A stretch of DNA of 63,646 bases, counting the filler, from Chrysochromulina tobinii (lineage: Eukaryota): NCBI GenBank assembly GCA_001275005.1. It is 8 parts of 8 records of this genome, joined end to end, with 100 filler letters (N's around TTAATTAATTAA, not from the genome) between each part and the next. Parts side by side here need not be neighbours in the genome. Positions count along the whole stretch, not along the records: positions 44,071 to 56,996 come from JWZX01000649.1; 7 more parts are not named here. One strand, written 5' to 3'. Below the pieces are notes generated by a model. It did not search any database and had not been told where the DNA came from. It saw only the letters and a list, made by a program, of their open reading frames with translations. The position numbers and the translations under genes were made by a program. Below, one piece after another: positions 5,362 to 48,075 of this stretch (its first letter is position 1; every line of letters begins with the position of its first letter).

Positions 5362-6853
5362 TCAGCAGTCATAATACCCCTTGCTGCTGCTCTCCTCCTC
5401 GTCCCCCGCGGTCGCCGCCCCCCTCCTCGCCGGGGACGGCGCCCATGTCACACTCCGGTCCGTGCGCTCGGTGCGCTCGCCACAGCGCTCGGTGCGCTCG
5501 CCACAACGCGCGCTCGATGGGCGTGGCGTGCGCGTTGTGGCGAGCACCGAGTGCGTGTTCTCTAGCGCGCGGTACGTGCGAGCGACCCGCGCAGACGCGC
5601 TCCCGCCCCCCTCCCAGCCCGCGCCCCCCTCCCAGCCCCGCCCCCCTCCAGCCCCGCCCCCCTCAGCCCCGCCGCTGCCGCCCGCTTGGAAGGCGTCGAC
5701 TAGTTGGACCAGTGACGAAGCGCGCACTCGGTCGCGCATCTCGCGTGCCTCCGCATGCCTCTCGCGTAGCAGCGCCTCGCGACGCTGGTCGATCGCGCCC
5801 GCGGCGGCGCGCAGCGTGCTCGCGCCAACGCGCCTTGAGTGACTGAGGAAGGCTCGTGCCTGCTTCGTCGAGATCGCAATCTCGCTCACCTGAGGGAGGG
5901 ACGCACTCAAGTGTCATCAAGCGCAATCAGTCTGAGGAGGGACGCCATCGATCTGAGGAGGGACGCAATCAATCTGAGGAGGGATGCAATCAAGGGCCAC
6001 AAAGATCGCAATCTCGCTCACCTCCGAGCCCGAGCTCGCAATCTCGCAATCAGATCGCAATCTCGCTCACCTCGTCATGGAGCGCCTCCACGTGGCCCAT
6101 CCAACGCGCATCCCTCAGCCGCTTATCCGCCTTCCGCGCGGCCGCCTCGCGCTTGACGCCGCGCGCGCGCAGCTGGTTCAGTTTCGTCACCCGCTGCCGC
6201 TCCTGCTGCGCCAACGCCCGTTGCGACCAGGCGGCCCTCTGCAGGTCCGCGCCGTGCCGAGCGTGCTCGGCGCGCTGGGCGGCGAGGGCCTGCTCGCGCC
6301 GCACCTGTGGGGAAGGGCGAGGCGCCGTGGTGATCACTTGCATGCAAGGCACGTCATCAGTGGTAATCAGCGAGGGCCTGCTCGCGCCCGCACGTCCTCG
6401 AGGGTCATCAAGCGCAATCAATCTGATGAGGGACGCAATCAAGGGGCCACTGAGCTCGCAATCTCGCGCCGCACGTCCTCGAGCCTCGAATGCCAATACT
6501 CGGCGCGCTTGGACGCATGGAGCAGCCATCGATCATACCTGATGAGGGAGGCCATCAGAGGCGTCATTCGAGGCCATCCGGTTCCTGATGAGGGAGGCCA
6601 TCAGAGGCGTCATTCGAGGCCATCCGGTTCCTGATGAGGGAGGCCATCAGAGGCGTCATTCGAGGCGTCCTTCGAGGCAATTCGACGTACTCAGCGAGGA
6701 GCGTGCTGTCCGTGTCGAGGGCGTCAATAGGGCCACCATTCTGCTCAAGCGACGTGACCTTGCCCACGTCCTCGAGGCTGCGACATCCCTTCGCCGCGGC
6801 CAAGATGAGCCAGGACGGTGGCTCGCCGAAGCTGAAACCGCCACCCGCCGGCA

Positions 6854-9437: not shown

Positions 9438-11630
9438 ATGAAGCGACGTCGGTTCGGCGTCGCCGGCGGCGGCGACGTCAACGGCGGCGACGACGGCGAT
9501 GTGAGGGTGCGAAGCGCCGAGGGCGAGGTGGTCGCGTGGTCCCGTTTGGCCGCGGCGCGATCGGCGGCGCTCGCCAACTGGGTGAGCGACACGGGCGGCG
9601 CCGAGGGGGCGTTCTCCACTCTGGTGCCTGCGGCTGCGCTCCGCACGCTCTCGCGCGTCGCCGAGGGCGGGGCGGAGGATGGCGGGGCGCTGGAGGGGTG
9701 CTCGCTCGCGCAGCTCGCGCAGCTGTTGCATGGCGCGCACTTTCTCGACGTGGACGTCGAGCTTCTCCGCCTCCTCTCGCGTTCCCTGTGCACTGGCCAC
9801 CTCGCCGGCAAGAGTGGCCCGGAGCTCGGGCGGCTGCTGGGCGTCAAGAGCGACTTCCCCACCGAGGCGGAGCGGCAGGCGGCGACGGAAGAGCCGATCT
9901 TCACGCATGACGCTCAGGACGACGCCATCGCTCCCGGAGCGGCGAGCTCCGACCTTAGACACCTTAAGATTGGCAACGTGGTCATTGAGTTGCCACCATC
10001 GGCGAAGGTCACCTACGGCGAGGGCGGACGCGCCGAGCTGCACCTGAACGCCTTTACTGGCAGTCTGACCGTCTTGCCGACGGCGGCCTCGATGTCCGTC
10101 AAGCGTGCTTCCGATGCACCCACACCGCCACCGCTCGTGTGCTGGCTCTCGACACAGCTCGTCAACGAGGACGCCCTCGAGGACGCCCTCGCAGACGCTG
10201 ACGTGCCGACGCTGTGTGCACTCAAGGGCGTGAGCCTCGCGTGGCGCGCGCGAGCGCGGCGCGTCCTGTGCGCGCGGCTGTGCGCACGCGTCGGCCTGCC
10301 GCTCACGAGCAACCTCGTCGAGGTGACCAAGCTCGACCTCTCGGGCAGCCGCGCCGCCGGTCGCCTCTTCGCCGACGCGGTCGACGCATCGCGCTGGCTG
10401 CCCAACCTGGCAAAGGTGACGGGGCTGGGCGGTTTCGAGGTGGACGTGGCCGCGCTGAGGAGCGTGGAGTCTTCGGATGAATCGGAAGAAGATGAAGAGG
10501 GTGAAGAGGGTCCGCCGCTGTATCCGATGGCAGGGGTACGCGCGTGCATCCGCGGCGAGGGCGAGGTGTCGATGGAGGTGCTGCTCGCCGCGTGCGTGCT
10601 GCGCGACGGTGAGGCGCACGTGCCGGCGAACGCGTTCCGCGACGACACATCGATGACGTCGATCGCGCTGCCCGCCGGCCTCACGAGCATCGGTGAGAGC
10701 GCCTTCGAGGGCTGTACCTCGATGACTTCGATCGAGCTGCCCGCCAGCCTCATGAGCATCGGTGAGTACGCCTTCTATGGCTGCTCCTCGATGACATTGA
10801 TCGAGCTACCCGCTGGCCTCACGAGCATCGGTGATTATGCCTTCCGTGGCTGCTCCTCGATGACGTCGATCGAGCTGCCCGCTGGCCTCAGGAGCATTGG
10901 TGATGGCGCCTTCATTTCCTGCTCCTCATTGACGTCGATCGAGCTGCCCGCCGGCCTCACGAGCCTCGGTGAGTACTCCTTCGAGGGCTGCTCCAGGTTG
11001 ATGTCAATCGCGCTGCCTGCCGGCCTCACGAGCATCGGTCAGTGCGCCTTCTGGGGCTGCTCCTTGATGACGTCGATCGAGCTGCCCGCCGGCCTCACGA
11101 GCCTCGGTGAGGGCGCCTTCATGAACTGCTCCTCGTTGACGTCGATCCAGCTGCCCGCCAGCCTCACGAGCATCGGTGAGTGCGCCTTCGAGGGCTGCTC
11201 CTCATTGACGTTAATCGAGCTGCCTGCCGGCCTCATGAGCCTCAGGCAGTAAGCCTTCAATGACTGCTCCGCGTTGATGTCAATCGAGCTGCCCGCCGGC
11301 CTCACGAGCCTTGGTAAGGGCGCCTTCCAGGGCTGCTCCTCGTTGACATCGATCGCGCTGCCCACCGGCCTCACAAGCATCGGTGAGTGGGCCTTCGGTG
11401 GCTGCTCCTTGATGACGTCGATCGCGCTGCCTGCCTGCCTCACGAGCATCGGCTATGAGGCCTTCCGTGAATGCTCCTCGTTGAAGTCGATCAAGCTGCC
11501 CGCTGGCCTCACGAGCCTCGGTGAGCTCGCCTTCTTTGGCTGCTCCTCGTTGGCGTCAATTGAGCTGCCCGCTGGCTTCTATGACAGCATTCTCAAATCT
11601 GCTGCAGTGCCTCCCAGCGCCATCCTTTGA
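9438..11630 (+). CDS. SKP1-like + F-box-like + BspA-type LRR (LRR_5) fusion protein, with an in-frame TAA at 11250-11252
   Basis: VRSAEGEVV..LLHGAHFLDVD..AGKSGPELGRLLGVKSDFPTEAE (SKP1-like); EDALEDALADADVPTLCALKGVSLAWR (F-box-like); about 14 repeats of 23 aa LTSIxLPAGLTSIGxxAFxxCSS. Confidence 0.8.
10620..11580 (+). repeat. 69-bp coding tandem repeats (BspA LRR units)
   Basis: Recurring ctgcccgccggcctcacgagcatcggtgag..gccttc at 69-bp spacing. Confidence 0.95.
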
Positions 11631-32086: not shown

Positions 32087-35000
32087 GCCACCTCCATCGC
32101 ACCCTCCATCGCCACCGCCGCCCTCGCCGCCGCCGCCCCCGCCTCCGCCGCCCACAAGCTATTCTGCCCTGCTGGCGCTCGGGACCTACCACACGTGCGC
32201 GTACCTGACAAACGGCGCGCTCCTCAAGTGCTGGGGCGCCAACGGCAACGGCCAGCTTGGCGATAATACGACGACCCAACGCGCCACCCCGACCACGATC
32301 GACGTCGGCGGCGCCGTCGGGCTGCTGGCGCTCGGAGGCTCCTGCACGTGCGCGTACGTGACGAGCAGCGCGCTCCCTCAAGTGCTGGGGCTACAACGGC
32401 AACGGCCAGCTCGGCGACGGCACGACGACCCCACGCGCCACCCCGACCACGATCAACGTCGGCGGCGCCGTCGGGTTGCTGGCGTTCGGAGGCCCCCACA
32501 CGTGCGCGTACTTGACGAACAGCACGCTCCTCAAGTGCTGGGGCTCCAACTGGGCCGGCCAGCTCGGCGACGGCACGACGACCCAACGCGCCACCCCGAC
32601 CACGATGGACGTCGGCGGCGCCGTCGGGCTGCTGGCGCTCGGATACTCCCACACGTGCGCGTACCTGACGGCCAGCGCGCTCCTCAAGTGCTGGGGCTAC
32701 AACTACAACGGCCAGCTCGGTGACGGCACGACGACCCATCGCGCCACCCCGACCACGATCGACGTCGGCGGCGCCGTCGGGCTGCTGGCGCTCGGAGACC
32801 ACCACACGTGCGCGTACCTGACGAACAGCACGCTCCTCAAGTGCTGGGGCTACAACATCTACGGCCAGCTCGGCGACGGCACGACGACCCAACGCGCCAC
32901 CCCGACCACGATCGACGTCGGCGGCGCCGTCGGGCTGCTGGCGCTCGGAGGCTCCCACACGTGCGCGTACGTGACGAACAGCACGCTCCTCAAGTGCTGG
33001 GGCGCCAACTACTTCGGCCAGCTCGGCGACGGCACGACGACCCAACGCGCCACCCCGACCACAATCAACTTCTGGGGCACCGTTGGGCTGCTGGCGCTCG
33101 GAGGCTCCCACACGTGCGCGTATGTGACGAACAGCACGCTCCCCAAGTGCTGGGGCTACAACTACTACGGCCAGCTCGGCGACAACACGACGACCAATCG
33201 CGTCAGCCCCTTTTCGCCGCCTGCTCTATGCGGCACCCTCTCGGCAGACACGTTCCTCGTCGCGGGGGGTCAAGTCTACGTTCTCACGTGCCAGGTGTTC
33301 GTGCCCTCGGGCGTCGTACTGCGTATCGCGCAGGGCGTCACCATTTACGCCTCGCCGGTGGCTGCCGGTGGCGGCGGCGCGCCCGCCCTGATCGTCGAGA
33401 AGGGCGGCTCTCTGCTCGCCGAGGGCTCTGCGACTGCGCCGATCACATTCACTGCCTTCAACCCCACCGAGTCATCGTCCTCGTCGTCGGTGTCGACCGA
33501 CCCTACCGTGCTCGAGACGCGCGGCAAGTGGGGCGGGCTCATCCTGCTCGGCAGCGCGCCGACCAACGTGGCGACCACCACGATCATCGAGGGCATCACC
33601 GCGAAAACGTACGGCGGCACCAATCCGACCGACTCGTCGGGCTCCCTGCAGTACGTGCGCGTGTGGCACGGCGGCGCGGTCGTGGGCGCGAACAACGAGA
33701 TCAACGGCATCACCTTCGGCGGCGTCGGCTCCGGCACCATCGTCGACCACTGCGAGGTGGCGTACAACGTGGACGACGGGTTCGAGTTTTTCGGCGGCAC
33801 CGTGAACGTCAAGTACCTGTCGGCGCTCTTCGTGGGCGACGACGGCTTCGACACGGACCAGGGCTACATTGGCAAGGGCCAGTTCCTGATCGTCATCGAG
33901 GGCCTGAGTGGCGACCACTCGATGGAGATCGACTCGGGCATCGGCTCGAATCAGGACGTGACCCCGCGCTCGCACCCGGCCTTCTACTCGTTCACCTTGA
34001 TCGGCGGAGGCACCGGTACTGGCGCGCGCACGGGCGAGCTGATCCACGTCAACGACGGCACGGGTGGCAAGTTCGGCAACGGCATCCTGGCGTACCCGCA
34101 CTTGAACGGCCTCCTCTTCGAGGACTGCGGCTCGACGCTGAGCTACACGCAGACGCTGCCGGCGGCCTCGGTCAGCATTTCGAACCCCGGATACTTTTAC
34201 TTCTCGGCCAACAACATCATCGACACGGCGACGACTGCGTCGCAGTTCGCTCTGCTCGCCGGTGGCTCCGGCGTCGCCGCCTGCACGCCCGCGGACACGT
34301 GGACGGCGGTTCTTGGTGCCCCCGGCTTCGTTGCGGTCAGCGCCGCCACTGACCTCGCGGAGGGCTCCGCCACCTTCAACCCTCTGCCGTCCGCCACCGG
34401 CGCGGCGTGCACGGGCACCAAGGACGCACTCCCCAACAGCGACCCCTTCTTCTCGTCGGTGAGCTGCAAGGGCGCGTTCGGCTCCTCGACGGACAACTGG
34501 CTCGCCGGCTACTCGTGGCTCGCGTGCAGTGGCAAGATGGCTGGCGCCACGTGCCCGGGCGTACCGGCGACGTTGTTTGCTGCGCTTGGTTCCTCTGTGG
34601 TTGCGATTGGAGGGACCATCTCCAGCTCGTTGGCCCTCGTCTCTGGCACTTCGTACCTGCTCACGTCGCAGCTCTTCGTGCCCTCTGGAATGGCCCTGAA
34701 CATTGAGGCCGGAGTCATGGTGTACGCGCTTCCAGCCGCCTCGCCAACCAGTGCTCCGGCGATCGTGGTCTTGAAGGGTGGCAGGATCGTTGCGCCGGGC
34801 ACGGCGACCATGCCGATCACGTTCACGTCCGTGCTTGCGGAGTCGGCGCTCGTGAGCTCGGCCACCGCCTCCACGGACTCGAATGAGAACGCCATCACGC
34901 TCGGCGAGCGCGGCAAGTGGGGTGGCCTCATCCTGCTCGGCAAAGCGCCGACCAACATGCCGACCAGCACGCAGATCGAGGGCATCACCGGCTACACGTA

Positions 35001-43249: not shown

Positions 43250-43970
43250 CTAGAACCCACCGTCTTCTCTGTACTTCTCCCTTGAGGTGTCAACGGACGC
43301 CGCGTCGAACACGAAACTCGAGAGACGGCGGTCAAGGCGGTCCGACGGTAGCGGGGTTGGCGATGGGGATGGCGGCGGTGGCGAGAGGATTGCTGTGCAG
43401 CACGAGAAGCCGCTGCATCCCCTCGCGCCGAAGCCACAGGCGGCTCCGTCCGAGGCTTGGCCGAGCCTGCAGCAGGCACCCTGAGCGCCACAAAACGTTG
43501 GGCAAGGGCCGGCACGTCCGCACGCTGTCCAGCAGCGGAGACCCACGTTCCGCAATGAGGGTTGGGGCGGTGAGGGCGAGGGGGGCGGCGGAGAAGGCGA
43601 TGGCGGTGTGAGTAACGAGGGGGCAAGTTCGAGGACGCTCAATGCCAGCGGCGGTGGCGAGAGGATTGCTGTGCAGCACGAGAAGCCGCTGCATCCCCTC
43701 GCGCCGAAGCCACAGGCGGCTCCGTCCGAGGCTTGGCCCAGCCTGCAGCAGGCACCCTGAACGCCACAAAACGTTGGGCAAGGGCCTGCACGTCTGCAAG
43801 CTGTCCAGCAGCGGAGACCCACGTTCCGCAATGAGGGTTGGGGCGGTGAGGGCGAGGGTGGCGGCGGAGAAGGCGATGGCGGTGTGAGTAACGAGGGGGC
43901 GAGTTCGAGGACGCTCAATGCCGGCGGCGGTGGCGAGAGGATTGCTGTGCAGCACGAGAAGCCGCTGCAT
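43250..43970 (-). CDS. Cys-rich repeat protein with SPPPP linkers (5'-partial); 276-bp units
   Basis: LRNVGLRCWTACxRAGPCPTFCGxQGACCRLG..CGFGARGCSGFSCC twice plus a partial third; anchors at 43381, 43657 and 43933. Confidence 0.75.
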
Positions 43971-44070
43971 NNNNNNNNNNNNNNNNNNNNNNNNNNNNNN
44001 NNNNNNNNNNNNNNTTAATTAATTAANNNNNNNNNNNNNNNNNNNNNNNNNNNNNNNNNNNNNNNNNNNN

Positions 44071-45967
44071 CGCCATCATGCCGTACGGCATCATGCCCAT
44101 CCCCATCCCCATACCCGGCTGCGGCTGCATCATGCCCATCCCCATCCACCTCTGAGCGATCAAGACCTTGTTCTCGGCGTTGACCGCGAGGTTCTCTAGC
44201 GCACCCGCCGCGTTCTTCTTTTGGTCATCCGTGCCGCTCTGCACCAGCGTCACGAGCGGCGCGACGGCGCCAGCCTGCGCGATCAAGACCTGGTTCTCGG
44301 CGTTGTTGAACGCGAGGCTCCACAGCGCAACCGCCGCGTGCTCCTTTTGGCCATCTGTGCCGCTCTGCACCAGCGTCACGAGCGGCGCGATGGCGCCAGC
44401 CTGCGCGATCAAGACCTTGTTCTCGGCGTTGAACGCGAGCCACCGCAGCGCAGCCGCCGCCTGCTCCTTTTGGCCAGCCGTGCCGCTCTGCACCAGCGTC
44501 ACGAGCGGCGCGATGGCGCCCGCCTGCGCGATCAAGACCTGGTTCTCGGCGTTGCACGCAAGGTTCCCCAGTGCACGCGCCGCGTGCTCCTTCTGGCCAT
44601 CCGTGCCGCTCTGCACCAGCGTCACGAGCGGCACGATGGCGCCAGCCTGCGCGATCAAGACCTGGTTCTCGGCGTTGTTAGCCGCGAGGTTCGCCAGCGC
44701 AACCGCCAAACCCTCGCGCTCCATGACCGCTTGGAACGCGCCTTGCACGGTCACGTCGAGCGCCTTGATCTTGGGCAGCTGGCCTTCCTTGTCGCTCTGG
44801 TTGGTCACCGTCACGTCCGGCTTGGAGAGGAAGTCGAAGGCCTGCTGAGGCGTCTTGGTGGCCCACTGCTCGGTGAGCACCTTGGCGAACGTATCGGCCT
44901 GAGCGGCGGCGTTCTGGATGCACACGATGTGGTAGCGCGCGTTTTCCGTGCCAACCGCCGACTTGAGGCCGTTAGGCGTCGCAAACTGCATGCTCAGCCA
45001 CGCCTCGAACTGCGTCCAGAAGCGGGACAAATACGAGAGGTCGAAGAGGATGAGGACGGTCGTGCCGAGGTAGAGCATGTTGACCTGCGCGCAAGTTAAC
45101 GGGGGAGAGAAAGGGCGGGGTGTAGCTGAGTGGTGGGGAAAGGTGGCGAAAAAACAAAAGGGCGGTGCCCGAGGCAAAGCGCGGCACAGACCTGCGACAG
45201 CATGGTCTTGAAATCGGCCGTGTCCTCGTCGCTGCGAATGAGGCCGATGGTAGGCTGGTGCTGTGGCATTGACCCGCCGTCGATCCACACGAGCTCGATC
45301 CGCTTGCCAGCCGACGAAACGAGAAAGGCCTTGATGGCCTTGAGCTGTTCGCCGTCGGGGTCGGGCTGAGTAGGGACCATCCAGCGATGGGAGATGGACA
45401 GAATCTTCTCGACATGTGTCCCGCGGACCACCTCTTCATAGCTGATGGTCACCTCGACGAAAGCACTCGGGTGCTTCGCGCGCAGCTCCTGGAAAAAGGG
45501 CAGGTTCGTGCCGGTGAAGGTGCGCAGGAAGTCCGCCTTGATCATCCAGAACCTACACGAGACAGGGCCTGCTGGCGCTTGAACAGCGCTCGGTGATCGG
45601 GATGGTGCGGCCTGTGCCAGTGCAGCACTGGGATGTAGATCAGGGGGGCTCGCCGGGTGCTGCGGCGTGGGCTTGGAGGCAGCGGCATTCCCCGTCGTCG
45701 CACCCTCGCGCTCCATGACGGCTGGCGGATACTCGTCGTCGTTGGGGGGCGCTTGCGCCTCGTTTTGCCCCCGAGCGGTCTGGCTGCTCGACGGTGCAAC
45801 GGGAACGATTTCGAGACGTCAAGGCCGAGGCTCGCCAGCTTCATCTTTTCTTGATCGCCCACTTTGACGAGGAAAGCCGACCGCTCATCTGCCGATGCAC
45901 CTTCGTACGCGGCCTTGATGTCCGCGTCTGGGCTCTCGACGGACAAAGCCGAGGCGCCCGCGCCCAT
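44071..45967 (-). CDS. N-myristoylated HET-like domain + armadillo repeat protein; intron 45191-45085; frameshift near 45810; 3'-truncated
   Basis: MGAGAS start; ILSISHRW..PDPDGEQL..VWIDGGSMPQ..MLSQ|VNMLY..YLSRFWTQFE; ARM units NAENQVLIAQAGAIAPLVTLVQSGTDGQKEHAAxAL. Confidence 0.8.
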
Positions 45968-46289: not shown

Positions 46290-47688
46290 TTAGGCAAGAG
46301 CAGGCGCCATCAACTCGTCGGAGACCAAGCCTTTCAGAGGCTGCTTCTTATGCAGCCGCTCGACGTTCTCGACAAAGTACCTGCGCCGCACACACATCAT
46401 TACACGGTGGCACCCATCATTACACGGTGGCACCCCAGTGGCAATCAGTGCCACTCCGTGGCGCTCAGCGGCACTCAGAGGCACCCAGTGGCTATCAGCC
46501 GGCGCCCCTCTCGCGCCACTCAGCGCCAAACCGCACCTTGAGTGGCAATCAGTGGCAATCAGTGGCAATCAATGGCAATCAGTGGCAATCAGTGGCAATC
46601 AGTGGCAATCAGTGGCAATCAGTGGCAATCAGTGCCAATCAGTGGCAATCAGTGGCAATCAGTGGCAATCAGTGCCAATCAGTGCCAATCAGTGGCACTC
46701 AGTGCCAATCAGTGCCAATCAGTGCCAATCAGTGGCCATCCAAACCACACCTGTGATTATCCTTGAGTGCCTCATCGGTCCTCCAAGAGTCATGCGGCGT
46801 GATGATGACATTCTCCATCGCCCACAGCGCCGAGTCGGGCGGCAACGGCTCCGTCGCAAAGACGTCGAGCACAGCACCTGCCACGCCGGCCGAGCCGAGC
46901 GCCGAGATGAGCGCCGTCTCGTCGACCACCGCGCCCCTGGCGACGTTGATCAGCCACGCGCTTGGCTTCATCATCCTCAGCCGCTCGGCGTTCAGCAGGC
47001 CGGTCGTGGCCGCCGTCTTGGGCACCGCCACCACCACAAAATCCGAAGTCGAGAGGACAGCGGCGAGGCCATCGTCGCCGCTGAGAACCTCGTCGAAGTT
47101 GAGTGCCGGCGCCGCCTGTCGACGCCATCCGAGGACGCGCATCCCAAACGCTTTACTCAACCTCGCCACCTCGGTGCCTATGCCTCCTGCGCCGATGACG
47201 CCGACCGTGCACGTGCGCGCATCGCGCTGGAGGAGGCTCGTGTACGAGCGGCTCGCCTGGTTGGCGGCGTGCGCCGGCCCCATCCGGCAGATGGAGAGTA
47301 TGTGGCCCAGGCAGTACTGCGCGATCGGGACTGCGTACACGCCGGGACAGTGCGTGATCGTCACGTTGGCCTCGTGGCAAGCCTTCATCAGCGGAAAGAA
47401 GAGTGGGACGTCGAGACCGGAGGCGCACATGTGCACCCACGCCACACGGCCCGCGCGCACAAGGCCGGCGAGGACGTCGTACAGCTCCGCGAGCGCCTTG
47501 GCACCGGACTCGAAGTAGAGCTTGAACGACTCGGGCGTGATCATCGCGCCGTCCCACGTGGCGTCGTCGGCCGCATCGAAGGTACCATCGAACTGTAGGG
47601 TGGTTACGCTCGCAGGGATCGCGGCCAGCTCCGATGCCCAGTTCTGCGCAATGGGCGGCGTGCACAGAAGCCGCAGGTCCTCGGCCAT
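46290..47688 (-). CDS. D-isomer-specific 2-hydroxyacid dehydrogenase; exons 47688-46751, 46380-46290
   Basis: VGVIGAGGIGTEVAR, MKPSAWLINVARGAVVDE, GAVLDVFATEPLP, VIITPH. Confidence 0.93.
46541..46740 (-). repeat. Intronic decamer array (CTGATTGCCA)n, about 20 copies
   Basis: agtggcaatc/agtgccaatc tandem on + strand. Confidence 0.95.
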
Positions 47689-48075
47689 GTGCCGTCGGAG
47701 AGTCTCGTCAAGTGCCTGAGACAGCGCGATTTTTGAGACAGCGCGGCGGCGGCGGGGCGGCGGAGCGCGCGCTGATGACCGATGCCCCAATGGTGCACCT
47801 CCGAGGTATTAAATTGGGTATTAAACCGTAGAATACTCGCGCAACGTAAGAGTACGAGTTTCAGTTTGTGCGGGCACCAGCCCCGCGTGCCAAACGCCCC
47901 GGGCGGCTGTATCGTTGGGCTGCTCGTCTGGTTATGTATACATGTACACACGCGTCGGTACACCATGGTACGCGGGCCCCCCGCACCGCCCCAGTGTTTT
48001 TGCATTGCGTTGAGGGCGGCGCGTGCGACCAATGCAGTCGCCGCCGCCATCTGCCCGGCTGTGCGCCGCGCAGGC

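Follow-up and report, generated by a model that had tools for sequence, protein, structure and literature searches.

Does a gene that joins a lipid-anchor start, a HET-like domain and armadillo (ARM) repeats encode a membrane-tethered immune sensor-effector, and is the copy at hand in working order? The locus raising this question lies at positions 44071–45967, on the minus strand of the JWZX01000649.1 part, of a 63,646-nucleotide stretch of the Chrysochromulina tobinii assembly GCA_001275005.1, the whole of which is here called the window. The reading that we favour, with a probability of roughly 0.6, takes the locus for a chimera, broken by a frameshift, between two subfamilies of a large, module-shuffling haptophyte family. 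Intact members of that family are likely to be immune-type sensor-effectors, and this particular copy is probably disabled.

Two subfamilies and a lost base

When the first 57 residues of the gene product served as the query, 56 proteins came back, ten of which (family B) combine an MGAGAS-type start, a linker, a HET-like domain and 4–10 ARM repeats, most of them ending in VLIAQAGG; the survey of paralogues and architectures suggested in an earlier, sequence-only reading (hereafter the original prediction) was thereby provided in part, short of a complete genome-wide census. A SAM-like segment precedes the domain in nine of the ten, being absent in P0096. SAM_1 matches are weak (E 0.02–0.16) in three of the four family-B proteins scanned, Pfam detects no NACHT or NB-ARC in these four, and in a sister protein, P0216, which also bears an MGCSSSK motif, a plainly related SAM passes the Pfam cut-off. 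Relative to family B, the window gene is 98% identical over the N-terminus, 73–81% over the ARM region and 38–40% over the domain, the latter reaching 89–90% identity to family A. A domain tree of 27 rows (26 of 27 proteins, those passing a length filter, plus the window) separates families A and B with strong support.

The joints between modules are also apparent. Compared with family B, the window copy is short of seven linker residues, a single base and the SAM, whose joint shows a 2-nt overlap, while the family-A module is flanked by an identical 18-nt repeat encoding VMEREG, at 45719 and 44727. Paralog DNA departs from the window sequence at both copies of this repeat, and VMERE-like motifs recur at the module joints of many paralogs. 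The tail is joined to the ARM region at a point where family-B proteins terminate three residues later, and ARM repeats downstream of a family-A domain occur in one of 30 loci, that of the window. On these sequence comparisons the locus is a chimera, with start and ARM repeats from family B, a family-A HET-like module swapped in and the SAM deleted. Recombination between brief stretches of common sequence (the VMEREG repeat of 18 nt and overlaps of 2 nt) would have inserted the family-A domain, stripped the SAM and added the GGYPPx tail, a subsequent 1-bp loss then detaching the anchor; we infer that the VMEREG motif drives such recombination. This copy matters less than its family, while documenting module swapping.

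Paralog loci L023 (1284–6652) and L024 hold one long frame that encodes a family-A domain early on and, later, the remnant of a SAM-like segment with a family-B domain, uniting both subfamilies in a single gene. By eye, 16 nt at the junction of ARM repeats and tail (window 44157–44142) recur in another frame of the long L023 gene at about 5547–5562, possibly by chance.

The start codon of the MGAGAS frame was found at 45967, as predicted, and the motif fits the N-myristoylation rule, which asks for a Met-Gly start and Ser/Thr at position 6. The tether proposed from it may hold for the family-B paralogs, where the motif is in frame, and not for the window copy, where motif and effector lie in different frames and the first-ATG frame closes at 45544, before the intron is reached. 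A 1-nt frameshift had indeed been anticipated, as a probable error by a missing A at 45810; it exists, with another position, base and cause. Paralog proteins read DVSK-AAQSGNE-SFPSH-PSSSQTARG across the region, the window giving SFPLH in the first-ATG frame and SSSQTARG in another, and in the alignment of L023 paralog DNA to the window the only gap falls within the C run, at 45794–45793. These proteins and this alignment rule out the missing A; what happened at 45810 is a different event, an in-frame loss of seven residues relative to P0045 and P0052.

The frameshift is a real DNA lesion, a lost C. Between 48000 and 44071, L001 and L002 are 100% identical to the window and L003 is 99.4% identical and gap-free, while DNA contigs of runs X1 and X3 cover 45690–45839 with 0 differences, at about single-copy depth (copy numbers being summed contig depth, not true copy number). 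The comparison was made in assembled contigs, and these sources may represent one strain, so that the lesion is not necessarily fixed in nature. L003 was set aside as an independent allele, its 22 differences clustering in paralog-matching patches. Assembly error is ruled out by the presence of the lesion in all these sequences. The lesion does sit within a short C run of a gapped draft, as a homopolymer sequencing error in an intact gene might, but the ungapped agreement of three other assemblies and the contigs of two DNA runs largely refutes that explanation and leaves it next to no probability.

RNA contigs show that related sequence is expressed and its intron spliced, none of those listed being locus-specific. 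Runs X12–X17 contain 0.29–0.38 of the words of the window gene, in paralog-like contigs; over the intron stretch they differ from the window at 4–10 of 147 letters and must therefore derive from a paralog or another strain, and the X16 contig skips exactly 107 nt at the intron site. This copy is most likely a disabled gene, the main rival being a downstream start, at 45716, or else an unseen intron, either of which would yield a soluble HET-like–ARM–GGYPPx receptor clustering by its tail instead of by SAM and anchor. The frame is open from 45716 to the stop in L001–L003, all 44 of 44 conserved domain positions are kept, numerous GT..AG pairs would in theory bring the frame back, and several family-A paralogs lack an anchor. 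Nevertheless, 45716 lies inside a frame opened by an upstream ATG and closed at 45544 before the intron, a very young pseudogene would appear equally intact, and neither the locus nor a frame-restoring splice is seen in any of the RNA contigs listed, so that a living copy is considered unlikely.

Candidate effector domain, variable repeats and proposed function

The HET/TIR-like domain comprises 241 residues, interrupted by an intron (45191–45085), and all the motifs that had called the HET domain to mind were located: SHRW at 45392, WID at 45287, MPQ at 45269, MLY at 45078 and SRFWTQFE at 45027. Across relatives of 39–77% overall identity, D66, D93, E149 and R172 are invariant and S56, H57, Q99 and R143 nearly so. 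E149, present in 93 of 93 representatives, sits in a helix (144–153) following the third core strand (130–136), and would thus correspond to the TIR catalytic glutamate. The predicted structure folds confidently and is compact, and its top folds, with weak structural scores (Z <8), include deoxyribosyltransferases, SpbK and SARM1, all of them enzymes; an initial model from 20 sequences (pLDDT, the predicted local distance difference test, 69.5) had given weak structural matches only. Altogether, the domain is likely a TIR-like (HET-type) signalling enzyme, as judged from the model and the conserved residues.

By sequence the domain is widespread and little named. It occurs in thousands of clusters; its nearest Atlas clusters are unnamed, two haptophyte and one ascomycete (0.96, 0.93 and 0.92), with no usable named match, and its closest named homologs are C. 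tobinii and C. parva proteins with 86–94% identity over its first half. Sequence searches of solved structures gave nothing useful, the Pfam models TIR and TIR_2 do not match the domain, and a profile search for longer homologs (969–2765 aa only) reached no HET-annotated protein.

A non-catalytic adaptor, recruiting HET-like proteins much as the TIRs of animal TLRs do, would equally suit an immune-type family. A homodimer is predicted, an adaptor role for HET was proposed by Dyrka et al. in the part of PMC4986451 available, and some TIRs are inactive despite the glutamate, as the accessible text of bioRxiv 10.64898/2026.04.20.719644 states. Against it, the invariant and near-invariant residues listed above are active-site-like in so divergent a set, and enzymes rank among the top folds; we regard it as decidedly improbable. 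Differences among family-A paralogs, including L003, cluster at the helix of domain positions 183–194 (window 44903–44869), within the predicted dimer interface, and this variation could set which paralogs pair.

The ARM repeats are confirmed by profile: Pfam Arm (PF00514) scores 96.8 bits against a cut-off of 20.6 (E 4.6e-28) in four stretches, in agreement with tandem repeats of 41–42 aa, and the DNA at 44152–44707 is a tandem repeat of period 123 (4.5 copies, 87% matches). The direct fusion that had been claimed is likewise borne out, 18 nt separating the domain end (44728) from the first half-repeat (44709) and Pfam giving zero NACHT or NB-ARC matches. All four quoted helix-3 strings were found, and the assertion that the repeats are nearly identical elsewhere is right in tendency: pairs differ at 9–15 of 120 nt, 5–9 of these within five helix-3 codons, with non-silent changes also at six other positions (4, 13, 14, 25, 26, and one at 29). 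Among 54 distinct repeats, taken from the window and from eight family-B proteins, the other two of the ten being near-duplicates, entropy is highest at positions 40, 30, 36, 37 and 33 (2.8–1.9 bits) and most scaffold positions are nearly fixed. Variation lies on one face of helix 3, other exposed positions being nearly fixed; in our repeat numbering the variable positions are presumably those of the peptide groove. In the window's four full repeats, seven preselected groove positions gave non-silent (pN) and silent (pS) values of 0.43 and 0, against 0.028 and 0.111 for the remainder, and the five codons hold 13 non-silent and 0 silent changes versus 6 and 6 elsewhere (p 0.005). Armadillo helix 3 makes up binding pockets, according to the available parts of PMC10684580 and PMC11228518. 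The window ARM region displays the traits of NLR/STAND repeat sensors, namely C-terminal position, high internal identity and site-focused variation.

The family at large is combinatorial. The MGAGAS module also heads NACHT-WD40 proteins and proteins joining distant members of the domain to NACHT-LRR, NACHT-like-ankyrin or MORN; TIR_2 precedes the family-A domain in three of 41 homologs; and partners among the 93 representatives include WD40, HEAT, ankyrin, GBP, Roc, PARP, ART, SPRY, TIR and decapeptide repeats, most representatives lacking a Pfam partner. An MG-x-x-x-S/T start is found in seven of 131 Met-starting representatives, versus 0.9 expected. In 38 of 51 MGAGAS proteins (P0044–P0099) the start is directly preceded by R[VIL]RGG, a leader lacking in the window copy, which we take to resemble the ubiquitin C-terminus; a deubiquitinase cutting after GG would free the Met-Gly start for myristoylation.

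Partners this mixed, among them also Tub and DEAD helicase, together with many fragmentary-looking copies and the lack of any pathogen link found, would fit a general signalling module or a selfish domain, with gene conversion and relaxed surface constraint behind the repeat pattern. Yet the partners are rich in NACHT, TIR, LRR, GBP, Roc, ART and PARP, and the variation lies on one helix-3 face, so that a non-immune family is held to be highly improbable.

For the favoured immune-type reading, the intact proteins would work as follows, all steps beyond the anatomy being inferred. The myristoylated N-terminus would hold the protein at the membrane, where the ARM groove would bind a variable peptide, probably pathogen-derived or pathogen-modified; binding would bring the proteins together through SAM and through self-association of the HET-like domain; with its invariant glutamate this domain, once clustered, would break down NAD+ or a related nucleoside, so as to exhaust the supply or produce a signal; and death or arrest of the cell would follow.

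Several points weigh against this reading: (i) the HET profile PF06985 (cut-off 22.5 bits), the check proposed with the original prediction, matches neither the window segments nor an intronless paralog, none of 41 close homologs at E<=0.01, and none of 93 relatives above the cut-off, the best scoring 19.5 bits with E 0.0013 and 12 of them reaching E<=1; (ii) hhalign against seven TIR_2 segments gave a probability of 0.07, Foldseek against PDB and viral structures nothing at E<=0.001, and VIA Z scores all <8, compatible with a mere common alpha/beta arrangement; (iii) the presumed equivalence of E149 to the TIR catalytic glutamate derives from its helix position after the third core strand and from a TIR motif; (iv) the paralog used for the homodimer prediction has 30 of 241 positions unlike those of the window, several of them within the interface helix; (v) the selection signal comes from four related, non-independent repeats, and the positions of the five-codon test were picked after the entropies had been seen; (vi) none of the RNA contigs listed spans the frameshift or the domain/ARM joint; (vii) the findings contain no link to a ligand, pathogen or phenotype; and (viii) fungal HET domains have no demonstrated enzyme activity in the portions available of PMC10197012 (section 9) and PMC12881547 (table), which list HET structure and activity as undetermined.

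Map of the locus and its surroundings

Table 1. Parts of the locus in window coordinates.
Feature	Positions	Strand	Support
N-terminal module from family B, myristoylation-type start MGAGAS (Gly2, Ser6)	45794..45967	-	98% identity to P0048 across 54 aa
1-bp deletion in C run, true frameshift	45793..45794	-	L023 paralog DNA alignment; identical DNA in L001-L003, X1/X3 contigs
Linker remnant, family B; SAM-like domain of paralogs deleted in frame ~45759, 2-nt (GG) overlap	45720..45792	-	
Direct repeat copy 1, 18 nt (VMEREG); contains first in-frame ATG of effector frame, 45716	45702..45719	-	
Family-A linker, Pro/Ala/Ser-rich	45558..45701	-	common to L004, L006, L009
Premature stop, first-ATG frame	45542..45544	-	
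HET/TIR-like domain part 1 (SHRW, D66, W-x-D93, MPQ)	45192..45557	-	
GT-AG intron, 107 nt	45085..45191	-	skipped in paralog-like RNA contig of X16; absent in paralog L018
HET/TIR-like domain part 2 (Y-SRFWT-E149, R172, VTN-DK)	44728..45084	-	
Direct repeat copy 2, 18 nt (VMEREG), domain/ARM joint	44710..44727	-	paralogs diverge from window at 44725-44731
Armadillo repeats x4.5, family-B type; variable repeat positions 30, 33, 36, 37, 40	44152..44709	-	
Low-complexity tail start: M/G/Q-rich, then GGYPPx repeats to stop in L001-L003	44071..44151	-	
Scaffold N gap; conceals gene end and at least 3.9 kb, or wrong join	43971..44070	.	

The M/G/Q-rich tail foreseen is present, and is merely the beginning of a longer one hidden by the gap, which L001–L003 fill with GGYPP(Q/P/R) repeats of differing assembled length followed by a stop. 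The 100 bases of the gap (43971–44070) hold TTAATTAATTAA filler. Because 3.9 kb of downstream sequence in L001 (4440–8318) and L002 (6488–10366) are unmatched by the window past it, the gap is drawn far too small or the join is wrong.

The intron within the domain is missing in some paralogs (L018–L021) and spans 92–119 nt in others, the former pointing to intron loss, possibly via a cDNA copy. The surrounding window is GC-rich eukaryotic DNA. Upstream, and unconnected to the finding, a minus-strand gene at 46300–47808 with GxGxxG and NVARG motifs is presumably D-2-hydroxyacid dehydrogenase-like, and contains an intron of 10-nt repeats at 46541–46740. Just past the gap, a 276-bp tandem repeat (43372–43970; 2.2 copies, 97%) encodes a Cys-/Pro-rich unit. 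Near-identical coding arrays at 10650–11576 (period 69; BspA-like LRR by eye) and 32169–33210 (period 153; RCC1-like by eye) may share site-focused variation.

Relation to known receptors

Haptophyte blooms are terminated by viruses, and to our knowledge hardly any intracellular immune receptors of haptophytes have been described. If the reading is true, a variable ARM groove in a receptor free of NACHT would be a new sensor design; the family is large and directly testable, and its domain suits a direct test of whether HET-type domains cleave NAD+ as TIRs do. A search of the open-access literature turned up neither the anchor-SAM-HET-ARM architecture as a family nor haptophyte receptors with variable ARM repeats. 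The intact SARM1-like family is the main finding and, as far as that literature goes, apparently undescribed.

SARM1 and C. elegans TIR-1 are ordered ARM-SAM-SAM-TIR. Intact family-B copies would be built of the same parts as animal SARM1, whereas their order is SAM-effector-ARM with one SAM, the window copy having none, and no sequence link to SARM1 was found. SARM1 is a conserved metabolite sensor; the ARM repeats of the family are, on the contrary, near-identical and variable, in a multi-copy gene. It is a tentative possibility, and no more favoured than that, that haptophytes independently built a SARM1-like executioner (anchor-SAM-TIR-like NADase-ARM) as a variable receptor repertoire, its near-identical ARM repeats diversified precisely at the groove residues like a natural binder library and its effector, sensor and anchor modules recombined within exons at short motifs, the 18-nt VMEREG repeat among them, this locus being a recent such event.

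Fungal HET proteins (PF06985), especially Podospora HNWD (HET-E, -D and -R), offer a second parallel: to the extent that PMC4986451, PMC9815663 and PMC12881547 were available, they share a TIR-related N-terminal effector with a conserved glutamate and C-terminal repeats of high internal identity with few variable sites. Unlike HNWD, the family falls below the PF06985 cut-off, lacks NACHT and has ARM instead of WD40; its intact paralogs carry a lipid anchor and SAM, and its host is a unicellular alga without hyphal fusion. The portions seen of PMC4986451 already note HET homologs in Haptophyceae and describe fungal NLR repeats as hypervariable and under concerted evolution.

As with the candidate ROCO-LRR and NB-ARC-TPR receptors of Ectocarpus, described in the accessible part of PMC3341825, these are algal multi-copy genes subject to birth and death, whose repeats are shuffled and whose binding face shows signs of diversifying selection. 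In Ectocarpus each repeat is an exon, whereas the window repeats share one exon, with joints within exons at short shared sequences, and the window gene lacks GTPase and NB-ARC. Protist and algal TIRs perform glutamate-dependent NAD+ chemistry, one clade including haptophytes, according to the available text of bioRxiv 10.64898/2026.04.20.719644; the domain would resemble them in its glutamate, if the equivalence holds, and departs from them in that those are recognisable TIRs and it matches neither TIR nor TIR_2. The family thus resembles an NLR without its ATPase, or a rearranged SARM1, and belongs to neither.
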